Source: Mobula hypostoma (Eukaryota). From it: 60,000 nucleotides of DNA. The notes under the pieces are model-generated. The model searched no databases. It was not told the DNA's origin and worked only from the letters and a program-made list of their open reading frames with translations. The stretch lies in assembly GCF_963921235.1 (NCBI RefSeq), contig NC_086097.1, forward strand, positions 121,336,001 to 121,396,000, read 5' to 3'. Positions 1 through 57,743 of the stretch are shown here, one piece after another. Made by a program: the position numbers and the translations under genes. The first letter of the stretch is position 1. Every line of letters begins with the position of its first letter.

Positions 1-391
1 TTATAATGATTTCCCAATGACTCAATTCCCTAGCCCTGACCAGGGATGTCCAGCCCCTATACCCTTCTATCCACCAACAAGAAGGCCTTAAAATTTTCCA
101 CTTCTTTCTTGAGAACAGACACATCTAGTTCCCCTCCTCCATCACCTTTTTTGCTGTCTGGTGGAACTGGTCCTAATCCTCTACAATTTCTCCTTCAGCT
201 CCTCCCAATTTCTCTGAACCCAAGGTGTAGCCTTGGGCACCTGCATAGGCCCAAGCTATGCTTGCCTTTTTGTTGGCTATACGGAACAGTCCGTGTTCCA
301 AGCCTTCCCTAGTAATTCTCCCTAACTTTTTCATGCTACATAGGTGATGCACCTTCAATTACTCCAAAAGACTGGAAGTAGGGTAAATACT

Positions 392-621
392 TGTGGTAAA
401 CCATGTTATATATGTTGTAACTCGGTTACCTGTCTGGACACACCCCTCTGCTGACTGCCCCTGTGGCTCCTCCCACAGTGTCCTGTATAAAGGTGTTCGC
501 CTTGCCCCTCTCCCTCAGTCCGGGGGCAGACACTCACTGTGGAGGTCGTATTGTACAGCGAATAAAAGCCTTTCAGTATTTTACCAAACCTCAGTCTTTT
601 GGAGTAATTGAAGGTGCTTCA
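392..621 (+). repeat. 5' LTR
   Basis: TGTGGTAAAC...GGTGCTTCA. TATA-like TATAAA at ~487-492, Inr-like TCAGT at ~515-519, AATAAA at 561-566. Confidence 0.95.
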
Positions 622-622
622 A

Positions 623-637
623 TTTTATTCGCTGTAC
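623..637 (+). promoter_or_regulatory. Atypical primer-binding site, complementary to the element's own LTR (553-567)
   Basis: TTTTATTCGCTGTAC is the exact reverse complement of GTACAGCGAATAAAA. There is no TGG-initiated tRNA PBS after the LTR. Confidence 0.7.
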
Positions 638-647
638 GTTTTAAAAC

Positions 648-1601
648 ATGGAACAGGCCCTGAGACCAGAAAAATTAGACCTCAATCCGCAAACACCTGA
701 AGCTGGAAACGCATTTGAACTCTGGCTGGCCTGCTTCGAAGCGTATCTAGAGGAGATTAAAGCGACCGACCCCGTAGCGAAGCGCAGAGTTCTACTCTCC
801 AGGGTCAGTCCACGGGTCTACTCGATGATCAGAGACCAGCCGAACTACGACGGTGCAATGAACACACTCAAAAGACAATACCTGCGGCCGATAAACAGCG
901 TCTATGCTCGCCACCGTTTAGCAACACGGCAACAACGCCCCGGGGAATCGAGTGCTGAGTTCGTCCAGGCCCTACGGACGCTCGTGCGAGCCTGCAATTG
1001 CCAGGAGCTGACGGTGGCACAGCATGCAGAACTCCTAGTGAGAGACGCCTTCGTCATGGGGACCAGGTCAGTGTACGTGTGCCAGCGGCTGCTGGAAAAA
1101 GCCGATCTTACCCTAAATTCGGCAATCGAGCTGGCTGATACGTTGGAGGCTGCTCTGCATAACTCCGAGGTTCTCCAGGCACGCGATCCCCCGATGGCCT
1201 CGTGGGCACCGCAGACCCCGCAACCCGCCGGCGAATCGACCTCGGCTGCCGCCAGTCGTGAGTCCGCGAAGTGCTACTTCTGCGGACTGGAGAAGCACCC
1301 CCGGAAATGCTGCGCGGCTCAACAAGCTACCTGCTCCAGCTGCGAAAAGAAGGGCCACTTCTCCAAGGTCTGTAAATCAAAACCGCGAGCGGGATCGAGC
1401 AGCGCCGCGTGCGAGACGTGGGGGTCGCCATCTTCCCTGCACGCCACCACCACGTGCGAGACGTGGGGGTTGCCATCTTGGCTGCCGCCATCTTCCCTGC
1501 ACGCCACCACCACATGCGAGACATGGGGGTCGCCATCTTGGCTGCCGCCATCTTCCCTGCACGCCACCACCACATGCGAGACATGGGGGCGGCCATCTTG
1601 A
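648..1601 (+). CDS. gag: Gypsy Gag with two CCHC zinc knuckles and a C-terminal tandem repeat
   Basis: 317-aa ORF starting 26 nt after the LTR. CYFCGLEKHPRKCC and CSSCEKKGHFSKVC both fit CX2CX4HX4C. Confidence 0.9.
   Translation: MEQALRPEKLDLNPQTPEAGNAFELWLACFEAYLEEIKATDPVAKRRVLLSRVSPRVYSMIRDQPNYDGAMNTLKRQYLRPINSVYARHRLATRQQRPGESSAEFVQALRTLVRACNCQELTVAQHAELLVRDAFVMGTRSVYVCQRLLEKADLTLNSAIELADTLEAALHNSEVLQARDPPMASWAPQTPQPAGESTSAAASRESAKCYFCGLEKHPRKCCAAQQATCSSCEKKGHFSKVCKSKPRAGSSSAACETWGSPSSLHATTTCETWGLPSWLPPSSLHATTTCETWGSPSWLPPSSLHATTTCETWGRPS
1409..1600 (+). repeat. In-frame 60-bp tandem repeat (first unit 45 bp) at the gag-pro junction
   Basis: Repeated tgcgagac.tgggggtcgccatcttggctgccgccatcttccctgcacgccaccaccac, encoding CETWGSPSWLPPSSLHATTT. 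Confidence 0.95.
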
Positions 1602-4600
1602 TCGGCGCCACCTCCCACTGCCTACGACCAACGGGTGCTCACGCGGCACCCCACCACGCCGGACCAAGACAGCGACCCCACCCTGGCTTCCGTGACCCTC
1701 GACCAAAGCGCTCCCCACCAGCTCGCAAGGTCAATGATGGACATCCTGGTGGAGGGGCACAGGACAAGCTGCCTGTTTGACACAGGCAGCACGGAGAGTT
1801 TTATCCACCCAGCCACGGTGCAGCATTGTGGACTCATGATATGGCCGGTAAGTCGGAGGGTCACCATGGCCTCCAGGTCGCATACAACAGACATCCGGGG
1901 GGGGGTTGTGTAGTGACACTAGTGGTGCAGGGCACAGAATATCGGGACTTTACGTTACTGGTCTTGCCTCAACTGTGTGCCCCTGTGCTGCTGGGGTTGG
2001 ACTTCCAGAGCTACCTGAAAAGCGTGACAATGAAGTATGATGGGCCCCTCCCGCCAATTACTGTCGTAAATCCCCTGTTTTGTAGAGATATGTCACGTAC
2101 TCCGCTACTGACCACACACACACACCGACCCGCGCATCCCACCCAACATCATGCCAACTGCCACACTACCGACACCACTTGCAGCCGCTCCACCCTCAGG
2201 ATCCCTCCCCCACCGTTGTTCGCCAACCTGACCCCCGACTGTAAACCCGTGGCAACTAAAAGCAGGAGGTACAGCGCGGGGGACAGAGCTTTCATTAAGT
2301 CAGAGGTGCACTGGCTGCTTAGGGAGGGGGTCATTGAAGCCAGCACAAGTCCTTGGAGGGCGCAGGTGGTGGTTGTTCAGAACGGGGAGAAGAATAGGAT
2401 GGTCGTGGACTATAGCCAGACCATCAATAGGTTCACGCAGCTCGACGCGTACCCTCTACCCCGCATCGCGGATGTGGTCAATCAGATAGCACAGTACAAG
2501 GTGTACTCGACCATAGACCTAAAATCCGCTTACCATCAGCTCCCCATCCGCCGGGAGGACCGCCCTTACACTGCCTCGAGGCGAACGGCAGGCTTTATCA
2601 ATTCCTGCGCGTCCCCTTTGGTGTCACGAATGGTGTATCTGTCTTCCAGAGGGCAAGGGACCGGATGGTGGACCAGTGCCAACTGAAGGCCACGTTCCCA
2701 TATCTGGATAACATCACCATCTGCAGTTACGACCAGCAGGATCACGACAACAACCTCCAAAAATTTCTCCAAGCGGCCAAATCTTTCAACCTCACCTATA
2801 ACAAGGACAAGTGTGTATTTGGGACCACCCGACTTGCTATCCTTGGGTGTGTCATGGAGAATGGAGTCATTGGCCCTGACCCCGACCGTATGCGCCCCTT
2901 GTTGGAACTCCCTCTTCCCAATACCCTCAGAGCCCTCAAAAGGTGCCTGGGCTTCTTTTCATATTACGCCCAATGGGTCTCTAACTATGCAGACAAGGCC
3001 CGCCCCCTGGTCAAGTCCACCACATTCCCCCTCTCTGCCGAGGCCCACGCGGCCTTCAACCGCATAAAAGGGGACAATGCCAAAGCAGCAATGCATGCGG
3101 TGGATGAGGCCATTCCCTTCCAAGTAGAGAGTGACGCCTCCGACTTTGCGCTGGCTGCTACCCTCAACCAGGCAGGAAGACCAGTGGCGTTCTTCTCCCG
3201 TACCCTTCAAGGCCCTGAAATTCGGCACTCTGCGGTAGAGAAAGAGGCCCAGGCCATAGTGGAAGCTATAAGGCACTGGAGGCACTATCTTGCCGGCAAA
3301 AGGTTCACCCTGCTAACTGACCAGCGCTCAGTCGCATTCATGTTTAATAATCAGCAGCGGAGCAAAATCAAAAATGATAAAATTCTGAGGTGGAGTATCG
3401 AACTCTCCACCTACAACTATGACATCATGTACAGGCCTGGGAAGCTCAACGAGCCCTCCGATGCCCTATCCCGGGGAACATGCGCCAGCGCGCAGATCAA
3501 CCGTCTATACGCCCTACATGTAGACCTTTGCCACCCGGGAGTCACCCGGCTTTTCCACTTCGTGAAAGCCCGGAACCTGCCTTACTCCCTTGAGGAGATC
3601 AGGATGATGACCAGGGACTGCCAAGTCTGCACAGAGTGCAAACCGCACTTCTACCGACCCGAAAAGGCACCACTCATCAAGGCCACCCACCCCTTTGAGC
3701 AACTGAGTGTTGACTTTAAGGGCCCCCTTCCCTCCACCGACCGCAATGTGTACTTTCTTAACGTAATTGACGATTACTCGCGGTTCCCCTTCGCCAACCC
3801 CTGCCCCGACACCACTACCACGTCAGTTATAAAAGCCCTGTGCAAGCTCTTCACTCTGTTCGGATACCCATGCTATATCCACAGTGATAGAGGGTCCTCG
3901 TTTATGAGTGACGAGCTGTGCCAATACCTACTGGCTAGGGGGATTGCAACCAGTAGGACCACGAGCTATAATCCCCGGGGGAATGGACAGGTAGAGGAGG
4001 AGAATGGCACAGTGTGGAAAGCCACACTCTTAGCCCTCAGGTCAAAGGGACTGCCGGTCTCCCGCTGGCAGGAGGTCCTTCCCGAGGCACTCCACTCCAT
4101 CCGCTCCCTGTTATGCACGTCCACCAATGCCACCCCTCATGAGCAGCTCTTTTCTTTTTGCAGAAAATTGACCACTGGAACCACCCTACCAACTTGGCTG
4201 ACGTCCCCGGGGCCAGTGCTGCTCCGGAAACATGCGAGGAGCAATAAATACTCCTCGATGGTGAAGAGGGTTCACTTACTTCATGCGAACCCCCAGTATG
4301 CCTACGCGGTTTTACCTGATGGGCGGGAGGACACGATCTCCATCCGCGACCTGGCGCCCGCAGGAGCTCCGGGCTCCTACCCTGAACACTCCGTGGTGAC
4401 TATTGACCCCGTACCCACCAATGTATGTACCTACGAGACACCATGCACCCTAAACGCTATACAGACACCACACGACACTCCCATACCGGGCGCGACGCCC
4501 ACGCACGAGGGATTACCGACGCCTAACGTGCTGGCACCTGAAGTCAGGCTGAAGCCAGCACAACCGCCATCGCCGGTGCAATCACCACCGGTGCTACGTA

Positions 4601-4644
4601 GATCACAGCGACGGACTCGACCGCCTGATAGACTTAACCTGTAA
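1602..4644 (+). pseudogene. pol: Gypsy pol (protease, RT, RNase H, integrase) with two frameshifts
   Basis: Protease LFDTGS is in the gag frame. RT: SPW...RMVVDY, YPLP, IDLKSAYHQ, YLDN. RNase H: SDASD, EKEA, TDQ. Integrase: HHCC (H..CHPG..CQVC), VDFKGP, SDRG, QVE. Frameshifts at the G9 run (1897-1905) and at ~2575. Confidence 0.93.
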
Positions 4645-4695
4645 ATATACTTCTTGTAAATATTGTCAGTCACTTCACCCCGCGGGACTCTTTTT

Positions 4696-4713
4696 AAAAA
4701 AAGGAGGGGTGAA
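4696..4713 (+). promoter_or_regulatory. Polypurine tract
   Basis: AAAAAAAGGAGGGGTGAA immediately before the 3' LTR. Confidence 0.85.
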
Positions 4714-4942
4714 TGTGGTAAACCATGAAAATATGTTGTAACTCGGTTACCTGTCTGGACACACCCCTCTGCTGACTGCTCCTGTGGCTCCTCCCACAGA
4801 GTCCTGTATAAAGGTGTTCGCCTTGCCCCTCCCCCTCAGTCCGGGGGCAGACACTCACTGTGGAGGTCGTATTGTACAGCGAATAAAAGTCTTTCAGTAT
4901 TTTACCAAACCTCAGTCTTTTGGAGTAATTGAAGGTGCTTCA
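4714..4942 (+). repeat. 3' LTR
   Basis: Near-identical to 392-621, with about 7 differences by eye including one indel. Confidence 0.95.
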
Positions 4943-5105
4943 ATACTAAAAGGCTTTTATTCGCAGTAAAATGTGACCTCCATGCTGAGTGTCTGCCCCT
5001 GGACTGAGGAAGAGGAGCAATGGCGAAATCGTCTTTATCCAGGGACTGTGGGAGGAGCCACAGGGGCAGTCAGCAGAGGGGCGTGTCCAGACAGGTAACC
5101 CAGTT

Positions 5106-5142
<37 letters not shown>

Positions 5143-5959
5143 TACCACAATAGGTGACTGCACTTAGTCCAAGTTCATCAGTCTCATCAACTTTGCCTTC
5201 CTCTTCCACCCTGCTCTTAAATTCACTTGGCCCATTTCTGGCCCATTTGTTTCATCTCCACAACATCTATTCCCAGGATGAGGCTTTTCCTTCCAGGACA
5301 TTAGAAATGTCCTCCTTCTTCAAAAGAAATAGGGTTTCCTTTCCACCAACATTGATGCTGCCCTCACCCGCGCCTCCTCCATTTCCCAGAGCTCCACGCT
5401 TTCCCCATCTTCCCGCCGCTTTAACAGGGGTAGAGTTCCCATTGTCCTCATATCCAAGACATCATTCTCTACAACTTCCACCATCATCAATGGGATCCTA
5501 CCACCAAACACATCTTTACCTCCCCCTACTTTCTGCTTACCCTAGGGATCATTCCCTCAGTGATTCTTGTCCATTTGTCCCATCTGCACTATTCTTCCTC
5601 CTCGGACATATCCCTGCAAGTGACAGAAATGCTACACCTGCCCATTCACCTTCTCCCTCACCTCCATTCGGGGCCCAAAGCAGTAGCTCCAGGTGAGGCA
5701 ACACTTCACCTGTGAATCTGTCGGGATTGTCTTCTGTATCCAATGCAGTCTCCTCTCCATTAGTGAGACCCGACATAAATTGAGAGACCACTCCAACTGC
5801 AGAAAACGGAATTTCCCAGTGGCCAGCCATTTTAATTTCTGTTCCCATTCCCATTCTGACATGTCGGTCCATGGCCTCCTCTTCTACCACAATGAGGCCA
5901 CTGTCAGGGTGGAGGAGCAACACCTCATCTTTTGTCTCCAACCTGATGGCTTGAACATT

Positions 5960-52061: not shown

Positions 52062-52932
52062 AGAAACATAGAAACATAGAAAATAGGTGCAGGAGTAGGC
52101 CATTCGGCCCTTCGAGCCTGCACCGCCATTTATTATGATCATGGCTGATCATCCAACTCAGAACCCAGCCTTCCCTCCATACCCCCTGACCCCTGTAGCC
52201 ACAAGGGCCATATCTAACTTCCTTTTAAACATAGCTAATGAACTGGCCTCAACAGTTTGCTGTGGCAGAGAATTCCACAGATTCACCACTCTCTGTGTGA
52301 AGAAGTTTTTCCTAACCTCGGTCCTAAAAGGCTTCCCCTCTATCCTCAAACTGTGACCCCTCGTTCTAGACCTCCCCAACATCGGGAACAATCTTCCCGC
52401 ATCTAGCCTGTCCAATCCCTTTAGGATCTTATACGTTTCAATCAGATCCCCCCTCAATCTTCTAAATTCCAACGAGTACAAGCCCAGTTCATCCAGTCTT
52501 TCTTCATATGAAAGACCTGCCATCCCAGGAATCAATCTGGTGAACCTTCTTTGTACTCCCTCTATGGCAAAGATGTCTTTCCTCAGATTAGGGGACCAAA
52601 ACTGCACACAATACTCCAGGTGTGGTCTCACCAAGGCCTTATACAACTGCAGTAGTACCTCCCTGCTCCTGTACTCGAATCCTCTCGCTATAAATGCCAG
52701 CATACCGTTCGCCTTTTTCACCGCCTGCTGTACCTGCATGCCCACTTTCAATGACTGGTGTATAATGACACCCAGGTCTCGTTGCACCTCCCCTTTTCCT
52801 AATCGGCCACCATTCAGATAATAATCTGTTTTCCTATTTTTGCCACCAAAGTGGATAACTTCACATTTATCCACATTAAATTGCATCTGCCATGAGTTTG
52901 CCCACTCACCCAACCTATCCAAGTCACCCTGC
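52062..52932 (-). mobile_element. 5'-truncated CR1 of the same subfamily, inserted antisense in ORF2
   Basis: ORF 52158-52934 nearly matches the host's C-terminus. TSD ATAT (52058-52061, 52933-52936). Removing it restores SDHN-MVEF. Confidence 0.92.
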
Positions 52933-53815
52933 ATATGGTGGAATTCTTCATTAAGATGGAGAGTGACATAGTTAATTCAGGAACAAAGTTTCTGAATTTA
53001 AAGAAGGGTAACTTTGAAGGTATGAGACGTGAATTAGCTAAGATAGACTGGCAAATGATACTTAAAAGGTTGACGGTGGATATGCAATGACAAGCATTTA
53101 AAGATCGCATGGATGAACTACAACAGTGCTTCATCCCAGTTTGGCAAAAGAATAAATCAGGGAAGGTAGTGCACCCGTGGCTGACAAGGGAAATTAGGGA
53201 TAGTATTAATTCCAAAGAAGAAACATACAAATTAGCCAGAAAAAGCGGCTCACCTGAGGACTGGGAGAAATTCAGAGTCCAGCAGAGGAGGACAAAGGGC
53301 TTAATTAGGAAAGGGAAAAAAGATTATGAGAGAAAACTGGCAGAGAACATAAAAACTGACTATAAAAGCTTTTATAGATATGTGAAAAGAAAAAGATTGG
53401 TTAAGACAAATGTAGGTCCCTTACAGACAGAAACAGGTGAATTGATTATGGGGAACAAGGACGTGGCAGACCAATACAATAACTACTTTGGTTCTGTCTT
53501 CACTAATGAGGACATAAATAATCTTCTGGAAATTGTAGGGGACAGAAGGTCTAGTGAGATGGATGAACTGAGGAAAATACATGTTAGTAGGGAAGTGGTG
53601 TTAGGTAAATTGAAGGGATTAAAGGCAGATAAATCCCCAGGGCCAGATGGTCTGCATCCCAGAGTGCTGAAGGAAGTAGCCCAAGAAATAGTGGATGAGC
53701 TAGTGATAATTTTTCAAAACTCTTTAGATTCTGGACTAGTTCCTGAGGATTGGAGGGTGGCTAATGTAACCTCACTTTTTAAAAAAGAAGCGAGAGAGAA
53801 ACCGAGAAATTATAG

Positions 53816-54284
53816 CATGAATGATGGCATGAACATCAACTTCTCTAACCTCCGCTAAGGCCCCACCTCCCCCTCGTACCCCATCTGTTACTTATTTTTA
53901 TGCACACATTCTTTCTCTCACTCTCCTTTTTCTCCCTCTGTCCCTCTGAATATACCTCTTGCCCATCCTCTGGGTCACCCCCCGTCTTTCTTCCCAGACC
54001 TCCTGTCCCATGATCCTCTCGTATCCCCTTTTGCCTATCACCTGTCCAGCTCTTGGCTCTATCCCTCCCCCTCCTGTCTTCTCCTATCATTTTGGATCTC
54101 CCCCCTCCCCCTCCAACTTTCAAATCCCTTACTCACTCTTCCTTCAGTTAGTCCTGACGAAGGGTCTCGGCCTGAAACGTTGACTGCACCTCTTCCTACA
54201 GATGCTGCCTGGCCTGCTGCGTTCACCAGCAACTTTAATGTGTGTTGCTTGAATTTCCAGCATCTGCAGAATTCCTGTTGTTTG
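53816..54284 (+). mobile_element. PLE 3' terminal insertion inside CR1 ORF2
   Basis: 8-bp TSD AATTATAG (53808-53815, 54285-54292). Removing it restores NYRPVSL. Confidence 0.9.
54149..54186 (+). ncRNA. Minimal type I hammerhead ribozyme-like motif in the PLE terminus
   Basis: AGTC-CTGACGA-A-GGGTCTCGGCCT-GAAA-CGTT-GACT: stem I AGTC/GACT, intact CUGANGA and GAAA cores, NUH site GUU. Confidence 0.65.
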
Positions 54285-56642
54285 AATTATAGACCGGTTA
54301 GCCTAACATCGGTGGTGAGGAAAATGCTCGAGTCAGTTATCAAAGATGTGATAACAGCACATTTGGAAAGCGGTGAAATCATCGTAAAAGTCAGCATGGA
54401 TTTGTGAAAGGAAAATCATGTCTGACGAATCTCATAGAATTTTTTGAGATTGTAACTAGTAGAGTGGATAGGGGAGAACCAGTAGATGAGGTATATTTGG
54501 ATTTTCAAAAGGCTTTTGACAAGGTCCCACACAGGAGATTAGTGTGCAAATTTAAAGTACATGGTATTGGGGGTAAGGTATTGATGTGGATAGAGAATTG
54601 GTTGGCAGACAGGAAGCAAATAGTGGGAATAAACGGGACCTTTTCAGAATGGCAGGCAGTGACTAGTGGGGTACCACAAGGCTCAGTGCTGGGACCCCAG
54701 TTGTTCACAATATATATTAATGACTTAGATGAGGGAATTAAATACAGCATCTCCAAGTTAGCGGATGACACGAAGTGTTAGCTGTGAGGAGGATACTAAG
54801 AGGATGCAGGGTGACTTGAATAGGTTAGGTGAGTGGGTAAATTCATGGCAGATGCAATTTAATGTGGATAAATGTGAGGTTATCCACTTTGATGGCAAAA
54901 ACAGGAAAACAGATTATTATCTGAATGGTGGCCGATTAGGAAAAGGGAAGGTGCAAAGAGACCTGGGTGTCATTATACAACAGTCATCGAAAGTGGGCAT
55001 GCAGGTACAGCAGGCGGTGAAAAAGGCGAATGGTATGCTGGCATTCATAGCAAGAGAATTTGAGTACAGGAACAGGGAGGTACTACCGCAGTTGTAAAGG
55101 CCTTGGGGAGACCATACCTGGAGTATTGTGTGCAGTTTTGGTCCCCTAATCTGAGGAAAGACATTCTTGCCATAGAGGGAGTACAAAGAAGGTTCACCAG
55201 ATTGATTCCTGGGACGGCAGGACCTTCAGTTGGTGAAAGACTAGATCGACTAGGCTTGTACTCGTTGGAATTTAGAAGATTGAGGGGGGATCTTATTGAA
55301 ACGTATAAAATCCTAAAGGGATTGGACAGGCTAGATGCAGGAAGATTGTTCCCGATGTTGGGGAAGTCCAGAACGAGGGGTCACAGTTGGAGGATAAAGG
55401 GGAAGCCATTTAGGACTGAGGTTAGGGAAAACTTCACACAGAGAGTGGTGAGTCTGTGGAATTTTCTGCCACAGGAAACAGTTGAGGCCAGTTCATTGGC
55501 TATATTTAAGAGGGAGTTAGATATGGCCCTTGTGGCTAAAGGGATCAGGGGGTATGGAAAGAAGGCAGGTACAGGGTTCTGAGTTGGATGATCAGCCATG
55601 ATCATACTGAATGGCGGTGCAGGCTCGAAGGGCCGGATGGCCTACTCCTGCACCTATTTTCTATGTTTCTATGTTTCTGACAAGGAGGGGAGTTGTGTGG
55701 GGGGTACATCACTCTGCTTGGCAAGTGAAATTTGTAGCTGTGAATCAAACTCAGACATTGGGGCCTCCTCAATGGTAGTTGTAAGAGTTGACTCTGGAAC
55801 TGCAGGAAGTGATTGTGACAGCTTTCTTCTGGATGTGTTAGCATACTGAACACTGTATGACAAGCTGCTCGATCTGCTGATCTACCCGAGACACCAGACA
55901 AACCTTTGAGCCAACGCTTTCATTCTGACCATGCCTAGATGACCGGAATGCAGCTCTTCTAACTGTTTGGATGGCACAAATTCATTCTGACGCTGATAAA
56001 TTGGGGAAACTGGAGTTTCAGCTGCACATTCCAGCCATTTTGGGTTGCCATGTCGACCAGAGACAGTGTGAGGCCTTAAATGATTTCTCCTTGTCTCATC
56101 TCTGCCATAATAGGGAGACTTTCGATTTTCATTAGTGAGAATACGTCAAGAGGAGTATCCTCTTTTGTAAATTTTTCAGTGATTTCCTTTTCCAAAGGCA
56201 AGCAAGACAATCAATCAGCATTTCCATGATTAGTTGTCCTCTTGAATTCAATCTTGTAATTGTATCCTCCATGAAATGGTGCCCATCTTTGGATTTGTGT
56301 TGCTACCCTTCTATGCATTGAAAATGGACAGTAGTAGTTGATGATCAATAATGAGGGTAACCTTTCATACAAGTTGAAACATTTTACACTCCAAACCAAA
56401 CTCAAGGCCTCTCTGCCAATCTATGTATAATTTTTCTCTGTAGTGGTAAGGGAATGTGATGCAAAGGATATGGGGCATTCAATTCAATCACTCATCACAT
56501 GCGGCATGATTGCTCCTATTATGGGACATCACAGGCAAGTTTAACTGGATGATGTGGATCATAATGTCTGAGTAGTGCCTGACATCACCATTTCCTTTGC
56601 CTTTTGAAAAGCTACCTCACACTTCTTCATCCATTGCCATCT

Positions 56643-57743
56643 CAGACAGGAAGCAAAGAGTGGGAATAAACGGGACCTTTTCAGAATGGCAGGCGGTGAC
56701 TAGTGGGGTACCGCAAGGCTCAGTGCTGGGACCCCAGTTGTTTACAATATATATTAATGACTTGGATGAGGGAATCAAATGCAGCATCTCCAAGTTTGCG
56801 GATGACACGGAACTGGGTGGCAGTGTTAGCTGTGAGGAGGATGCTAAGAGGATGCAGAGTGACTTGGATAGGTTGGGTGAGTGGGCAAATTCATGGCAGA
56901 TGCAATTTAATGTGGATAAATGTGAAGTTATCCACTTTGGTGGCAAAAATAGGAAAACAGATTATTACCTGAATGGTGGCCGATTAGGAAAAGGGGAGGT
57001 GCAACGAGACCTGGGTGTCATTATACACCAGTCATTGAAAGTGGGCATGCAGTACAGCAGGCGGTGAAAAAGGCAAATGGTATGCTGGCATTTATAGCGA
57101 GAGGATTCGAGTACAGGAGCAGGGAGGTACTACTGCAGTTGTACAAGGCCTTGGTGAGACCACACCTGGAGTATTGTGTGCAGTTTTGGTCCCCTAATCT
57201 GAGGAAAGACATCCTTGCCATAGAGGGAGTACAAAGAAGGTTCACCAGATTGATTCCTGGGATGGCAGGACTTTCATATGAAGAAAGACTGGATGAACTG
57301 GGCTTGTACTCGTTGGAATTTAGAAGATTGAGGGGGGATCTGATTGAAACGTATAAAATCCTAAAGGGATTGGACAGGCTAGATGCAGGAAGATTGTTCC
57401 CGATGTTGGGGAAGTCCAGAACAAGGGGTCACAGTTTGAGGATAAAGGGGAAGCCTTTTAGGACCGAGATTAGGAAAAACTTCTTCACACAGAGAGTGCT
57501 GAATCTGTGGAATTCTCTGCCACAGGAAACAGTTGAGGCCAGTTCATTGGCTATATTTAAGAGGGAGTTAGATATGGCCCTTGTGGCTACGGGGATCAGG
57601 GGGTATGGAGGAAAGGCTGGGGCGGGGTTCTGAGTTGGATGATCAGCCATGATCATAATAAATGGCGGTGCAGGCTCGAAGGGCCGAATGGCCTACTCCT
57701 GCACCTATTTTATATGTTTCTATTCTCTATGTTTCTATGTTTC
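56643..57743 (+). mobile_element. 5'-truncated CR1 (third copy of the same subfamily)
   Basis: [15 protein letters not shown] (56597-57067) and C-terminal ORF 57064-57633, with one frameshift and a (CTATGTTT)n tail. Confidence 0.92.

Follow-up and report, generated by a model that had tools for sequence, protein, structure and literature searches.

How does an LTR retrotransposon begin reverse transcription when it carries no binding site for a tRNA? This question is raised by a gypsy element in a stretch of 60,000 nucleotides from Mobula hypostoma, which as a whole is called the window here. The element occupies 392–4942 and has LTRs of 230 and 229 bp. The features to which the text refers are as follows.

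345–391, minus strand: U5 portion of the older sister solo LTR that the element interrupted; the duplication of this solo LTR is at 340–344.
387–391, plus strand: left target site duplication, ATACT.
392–621, plus strand: 5' LTR (TGTGG...TTCA), 230 bp.
486–492, plus strand: TATA box TATAAAG, from the sequence; its first T is 31 nt ahead of the predicted start.
515–521, plus strand: initiator-like TCAGTCC with the predicted start A517 (LTR position 126), from the sequence and four run-on arm ends at LTR 124–127.
517–567, plus strand: putative self-primer, a capped leader with the 3' end AAUAAAA.
553–567, plus strand: LTR partner motif, with the AATAAA poly(A) signal inside it at 561–566.
568–617, plus strand: U5 stem, predicted to stack on the primer duplex; putative cut between A567 and G568.
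618–622, plus strand: UUCAA, the LTR end and spacer A, unpaired in the predicted fold; first template bases.
623–637, plus strand: primer-binding site (PBS), core 623–636, complement of 553–567.
648–4644, plus strand: gag-pol, with two tandem CCHC knuckles, protease, RT, RNase H and integrase, and no chromodomain.
4696–4709, plus strand: polypurine tract (PPT), from the sequence, 4 nt 5' of the 3' LTR.
4714–4942, plus strand: 3' LTR, with a motif copy at 4874–4888 and no PBS behind it.
4943–4947, plus strand: right target site duplication, ATACT.
4943–5149, minus strand: U3-R part of the same sister solo LTR, with a motif variant at 4955–4969; duplication at 5150–5154.

The element is a young, high-copy Ty3/gypsy retrotransposon without a chromodomain. 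Its 5' and 3' LTRs are identical in 223 of 230 columns (6 mismatches, 1 gap), and the TG...CA LTR ends, target duplication and PPT of a Ty3/gypsy LTR element are all present. Pfam found protease, RT, RNase H and integrase in the gypsy order (PR-RT-RH-IN) in the window proteins, the best PDB match is Ty3 Gag-Pol (E 1e-56), and in the alignment the invariant C and H columns of the two tandem Gag knuckles lie at 224–257. The gag-pol of the window copy is disrupted: there is one stop, near 1600, and the frame changes near 1900 and again near 2580. Single frames of ~1,300 codons occur in other genomic copies of the family. The search for the 5' end gave 1,871 candidates, 40 of them scored at at least 97%, and the genome has 449 exact normal LTR-PBS-gag junctions. 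The element lies antisense within the sister solo LTR, ~10 nt downstream of the AATAAAA of the latter, and each of these nested insertions retains its own 5-bp duplication. At the gag-protease boundary (1419–1616) there are three 60-nt tandem repeats.

The initial annotation proposed that a 15-nt self-complement stands where a tRNA site would be expected, and its reading of the letters is correct. The PBS at 623–637, TTTTATTCGCTGTAC, is the exact reverse complement of GTACAGCGAATAAAA at LTR positions 553–567, a single A (622) separates it from the LTR end, and the 3' LTR has the motif copy at 4874–4888. The partner motif does contain AATAAA and is internal to the predicted transcript, ~36 nt past A517. 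No TGG follows the LTR and the PBS starts with TTTT; the element shows neither the TGG start, which is the signature of a tRNA-type PBS (PMC5006619, in excerpt), nor a complement to a tRNA 3' end. When the LTR was resampled 20,000 times with a first-order Markov model, the longest complement was 10 nt, and a complement of at least 15 nt was found in 7 of about 19,900 random 230+39-nt segments of the window.

A pairing that is used should be kept when its letters change. The motif of the sister solo LTR reads TTACTGCGAATAAAA, as the initial annotation stated, and the PBS that it predicted from this motif exists in the genome (74 matches, against 0 for the reversed control). Inspection of 30 loci with the sister PBS found 25 that run into gag, one that is unrelated and four run-ons, in which the PBS continues into an inverted LTR. 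The compensatory changes between PBS and LTR for which the initial annotation proposed a test were found between subfamilies at two internal pairs, 11 and 8, in sets picked by exact PBS pattern, which under-samples PBS decay, and among copies that are not independent events inside one subfamily. At pair 11, for which four sets supplied 72 distinct normal junctions to score (two loci without an anchor were dropped, and some misfit the junction pattern), LTR A accompanies PBS T in 47 of 47 copies, and LTR T accompanies PBS A in 22 of 24 subfamily-B copies and in the one further copy (23/25). At pair 8, an LTR variant predicted a further PBS before the search, which gave 85 matches and none for the control. 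The first 20 of these 85 were taken and 19 were scorable: PBS A goes with LTR T in 16, with G in two, and one is misregistered. PBS C goes with LTR G in 58 of 71 copies (T in 5, other in 8). The copies with the letter of the other subfamily in the LTR, 5/71 and 2/19, are counter-evidence at this pair. The letter at pair 15 differs between subfamilies A and B, and in an intermediate subfamily (47 matches) this pair is unpaired in 24 of 25 copies (broken in 23, variant in one). With two pairs covarying and the terminal pair 15 broken in one subfamily, we set the core at 14 bp; the 15-nt pairing of the initial annotation is exact in the window copy, but the selected duplex is one pair shorter. 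On the evidence of these sequences, the motif/PBS pairing is under selection, with two pairs covarying and one lagging. Searches for more distant families within the same genome gave this family alone. Copies with discordant LTR and PBS were considered as a test of 5' versus 3' priming and dropped; B' and D share U5, and their gag starts are mixed by eye.

The same arrangement is found in distant relatives. A metagenome scan retained 80 loci from 286 related stretches; the gag N-terminus was matched in 35, of which three are too close to a contig end and 32 are testable. A perfect inverted repeat of 11–18 nt, with one arm just 5' of gag, is present in 24 of these 32 loci in other letters, many of the 24 being copies of the same families. 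The remaining eight have 6–10 nt only, and several are decayed copies of positive families. Sixteen representatives were picked by hand and 15 relocated (L131 was mislocated). Across these 15 families, own-family pairing is 11–18 nt, compared with a mean of 4.7 across families. Their layout is fixed, namely a motif ending in AAA, RCC (14/15), a U5 of 21–70 nt, CA, one spacer base and TTT, and the middle letters of the motif vary despite it. The duplex edge lies one base past the LTR-terminal CA in 15/15 families. A canonical AATAAA or ATTAAA is inside the duplex in nine of the 15, and L121 has a separate AATAAA in the loop. The self-priming signature is real, selected and clade-wide.

The nearest named protein is from a ray (69% identical), and other named proteins, from a nematode, two crustaceans and a moth, are 48–55% identical. 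By the names on these protein hits, the clade spans cartilaginous fish, crustaceans, insects and nematodes. The Chromo family was detected neither in the window proteins nor in the relatives (0/35, E 0.01) nor among the precomputed domains of 120 matches, and by this test the element is outside the Tf1/sushi group. A scan of 37 candidates among viral contigs found none related, and a protein atlas matched generic Gag clusters only. A motif search in the searchable supplements of PMC6238403 gave no match, and the excerpts of that paper no sequence or PBS data. The Cigr-1 and MolGy clades were considered as names. The Mag lineage has short LTRs, a single gag-pol frame, two tandem CCHC knuckles, no chromodomain and a 5-bp duplication. 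By these features the element can tentatively be labelled Mag-like; Mag elements are described as tRNA-primed, whereas this element has a self-complement in place of the tRNA PBS.

The spacing between TATA box and start site predicts a transcript beginning at A517. In the predicted fold of 516–660 (−45.3 kcal/mol, z −3.37, 0/200 shuffles), the motif/PBS duplex is stacked on the U5 stem and UUCAA is unpaired on the 3' side. The putative cut at 567/568 faces this UUCAA bulge and would leave A622 as the first template base. The computed unpaired probability of AAUAAA is 0.00–0.01 with the PBS and 0.33–0.97 in the 3' context. A pyrimidine run at 505–518 overlaps the initiator, and the CAG of TCAGTCC also fits a 3' splice site. 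Six distant loci (L148, L152, L169, L196, L131 and L133) have, by eye, a pyrimidine run and AG 0–25 nt 5' of the motif. Judged by eye from such letters, these could be 3' splice sites, and a spliced leader is conceivable.

Further evidence comes from the run-on insertions. The exact pattern, LTR end, A, PBS and the inverted LTR upstream of the motif, occurs in 47 places and its control in none. Forty of the 47 belong to family A, which against the 449 normal junctions is about 8%, the two patterns being of different lengths (22 and 27). A looser one matched 61 places. All 47 exact loci and 20 of the 22 new ones from the looser pattern were examined (67 distinct loci); L238 proved to be a local duplication only, and 66 run-ons remain.

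In Class I (29/66), both arms end at LTR position 1, arms that fade at 6–21 in a variable AT repeat being scored as reaching U3, and no PPT lies behind. These units are ~405 bp long, have a U3 end on either side and occur in subfamilies A, B and D. The 5-bp duplication is perfect in 20, has one mismatch in five and is absent from those ends in four, two of which are right ends of longer elements. The U3 end on each side and the duplication indicate that Class I units were accepted by the integrase. Arm-to-arm identity (0.948, versus 0.938 to other copies) is uninformative. Insertion into an older LTR was rejected as an origin of the two-ended units; a single duplication flanks the whole unit and there is no host-LTR remainder. 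In Class II (10/66; nine by script, L112 by eye), the arms pass the PPT into pol, two of them reaching or passing the PBS after more than 3 kb, and in five of the eight inspected the outer ends have duplications. Class III comprises ten arms that break in the LTR, at 159, 158, 149, 144, 143, 127, 127, 125, 124 and 118; three resume beyond a deletion or SINE. Four of these ten end at 124–127, around the predicted start at 126 (binomial p about 2e-4 with a uniform null, the 4-nt window having been drawn after the ends were seen and each end carrying 1–3 nt of microhomology uncertainty). Four loci are LTRs in which a short inverted U5 stretch is inserted, and the rest of the 66 are truncated or complex.

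Several loci show related structures. Two of 20 subfamily-D loci are run-ons, one departing after 18 nt. L099, L214 and L101 are longer elements whose right end carries the run-on (3' LTR, A, PBS, inverted U3), and the duplication of L099 is intact. By analogy with Tf1, this suggests that the primer stays on the minus strand. In L096, L106, L228 and L229, an inverted copy of the U5 end is inserted in an LTR right behind AATAAAA, with the same breakpoint in two subfamilies; our reading is a recurrent template switch via the PBS and the short AAAAG homology. L004 is a complex rearranged copy, in which an inverted LTR is joined to the protease region at a short motif homology. A small leader hairpin lies just 5' of the motif at 528–547; its loop is in part palindromic and varies from one subfamily to another, and two run-on arms end 2–3 nt short of its base. 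This hairpin is a candidate for the signal at which plus-strand copying of the primer stops. The run-ons prove that motif and PBS pair in the course of reverse transcription and set the 3' edge of this pairing; they do not single out the molecule that primes.

We consider it highly probable that the element self-primes in the manner of Tf1. The initial annotation had suggested self-priming, and the compensatory changes, the clade-wide layout, a Tf1-like stacked hairpin and the run-on products support it. With appreciably less assurance, we favour as primer a capped leader of ~51 nt cut behind AAUAAAA; its duplex with the PBS would also keep the 5' poly(A) signal hidden. Transcription would begin at A517, as the TATA box and initiator suggest and four run-on ends support. 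The leader motif, whose pairing is selected, would then pair with the PBS and, according to the computed fold, stack on the U5 stem and leave UUCAA free. The 5' AAUAAA would be buried, and the 3' copy, which has no PBS, would by its computed accessibility be free for polyadenylation. As in Tf1, the RNase H activity of the RT would probably cut the RNA between A567 and G568, giving a primer of ~51 nt held by 14–15 bp. The RT may then extend AAUAAAA onto A622 and U5 and jump to the short repeat bounded by the cut and the poly(A) site. Plus-strand DNA would finally copy back into the retained primer. Normally the PBS part alone would be kept, and in ~8% of products the end may run on or snap back on R, leading to inverted-LTR insertions.

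Class I may arise by snap-back of the plus-strand PBS copy on itself, Class II by invasion of the 3' R of plus-sense RNA by the plus-strand end, and Class III by plus-strand copying as far as the RNA 5' end. All three would follow if plus-strand DNA ends in a PBS copy able to pair with R. Class III is the expected read-through of a capped 51-nt primer, and this class and the local hairpin together speak for the cleaved 5' leader. Internal cleavage of a leader was one of three uses of the pairing listed in the initial annotation and fits best of the three, given the hairpin and the arms at the start site, the primer itself being our inference. Several points stand against the leader. Free copying of a 51-nt primer would leave a 37-nt flap on every product, and the persistence of the broken 15th pair in the subfamily with 47 matches implies that normal progeny inherit no primer letters beyond 14 nt. 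Ten of the 66 run-ons were templated by the 3' LTR copy and do not single out the 5' leader. Nor do the 29 two-ended units, which need only the 15-nt complement.

Another of the listed uses, priming by the RNA 3' end, is unlikely but has evidence in its favour. The 3'-LTR motif, trimmed behind AAUAAA, would anneal to the PBS of the same or a co-packaged RNA, and the cDNA would, on this doubtful assumption, start tethered to the 3' end of its own genome. It agrees with the ten run-ons that go back through U3, PPT and pol, as read-through would give, and with the target duplications of five of the eight inspected. The long leader in normal products also needs no account if RNase H removes the upstream RNA. 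However, invasion of the 3' R by the plus-strand end gives the same products, the 5' motif, at a distance of 55 nt from the PBS, is the first to fold, forming a stable hairpin, and the arms that stop at the start site (4/10) are not predicted. We hold it possible, at a similarly low level, that the PBS is an antisense switch that chooses the 3' poly(A) site and also serves as landing site for the cut RNA 3' end. The inverted-LTR insertions through PPT and pol might then, no less tentatively, be fossilised primer-cDNA joints. If true, 3'-end priming would be a mode distinct from tRNA, half-tRNA and Tf1 5'-end priming, in a widespread animal gypsy clade.

It is improbable that transcription starts at the motif itself (553) and that the primer is the first 15 nt, strictly as in Tf1. 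This arrangement is known (PMC10085805 and PMC4600332, in excerpt), it would explain why no more than 14–15 nt are complementary, and two arms (L120 and L213) end 3–4 nt beyond the motif. However, there is no TATA-like box 30 nt upstream of 553; the TATA box and initiator indicate 517, and four arms end at 515–518.

There is also little likelihood that hiding the 5' poly(A) signal, or some other structural role, is all that the duplex does, with priming left to a host RNA or protein. Suppression of the signal is obligatory for retroviruses that carry it in R, and HIV-1 achieves it in part through a hairpin (excerpts of PMC12789967); AAUAAA is fully paired in the computed 5' context. Masking, the remaining use in the initial annotation, is plausible here as a second job, though it is not shared by the whole clade. 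It does not require a duplex edge fixed past CA as in the 15 families, which priming does; a canonical hexamer is missing from the duplex in six of the 15, one has its AATAAA in the loop, and no other PBS is present. Priming by a tRNA or tRNA half with an incidental LTR match is nearly excluded, since TGG is absent and the PBS varies in step with its own LTR, both among copies in the genome and from family to family, although the host tRNA sample is partial (37 calls, 11 distinct sequences, nine of them Lys, too few for a screen; longest complement 9 nt in an intron-spanning call, otherwise 3–6).

Self-priming by the ~51-nt leader, our preferred reading, can be compared with known systems, here from excerpts of the papers cited (further sources: PMC3601003, PMC5445492, PMC5443660, PMC7472051). 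Tf1-type elements have a self-primer, a PBS and flanking stems (PMC10085805, PMC4600332, PMC5341516), and about half of Tf1 cDNA molecules have the PBS copy as a single-stranded 3' end (PMC11042837). As in Tf1/Tf2 of S. pombe, Tj1 of S. japonicus and the Tf1/sushi group, the PBS of our element is complementary to its own LTR RNA and there is no tRNA site; also as in the Tf1/sushi group, a predicted U5 stem flanks the duplex and the PBS would be copied onto the cDNA 3' end (PMC11042837). Unlike these chromoviruses, it has no chromodomain. Unlike in Tf1, the motif overlaps the poly(A) signal and is about 36 nt inside the predicted transcript, not at its first base. Tf1 forms a three-duplex pretzel, whereas one U5 stem and a weak hairpin behind the PBS are predicted here; a third duplex, between the LTR and the sequence behind the PBS, was not predicted in the fold. 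Self-priming has been predicted from sequence for the plant elements Tcn1 (gypsy) and TAR/Houba/Osr-1 (copia), in which a self-complement likewise replaces the tRNA PBS (PMC6317226). Those are other lineages and hosts, and the excerpted text of that paper mentions no animal case outside the chromoviruses. As with the HIV-1 poly(A) hairpin (PMC12789967, in excerpt), the predicted RNA structure covers the 5'-LTR AAUAAA; the HIV-1 hairpin is local to R/U5, forms at both ends and a tRNA primes, whereas here the masking strand would be the PBS, which follows the 5' LTR alone.

Self-priming is known from descriptions of chromoviruses and from predictions for a few plant lineages; here it very probably extends to a gypsy clade without a chromodomain. 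The geometry differs as well, in that the putative primer end is internal and coincides with the poly(A) signal, and one duplex could serve both priming and 5' poly(A) suppression. The run-on insertions supply exact candidate coordinates, start 517 and cut 567/568. They also point to a cost of self-priming: roughly one in twelve products is mis-copied as a palindrome, and the integrase inserts it nonetheless. The second compensatory pair, the correction to 14 bp and the integrated by-products that locate the primer are new. In the open literature, as distinct from subscription journals and Repbase Reports, we found neither self-priming in a non-chromodomain animal gypsy clade nor integrated PBS fold-back units. 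Some Repbase entries reportedly mention self-priming, so prior notice is possible.

Repeat libraries would take the run-on units for odd solo LTRs or inverted-repeat elements. Elsewhere in the window, several dispersed copies of a short repeat with the end ...GCTGAGTTCCTCCAGCATTTTGT, which we take to be a shark/ray SINE-LINE tail, lie between 6729 and 54224. Another repeat is present at 52062–57723 in three copies, one of them inverted, with 92–99% identity.
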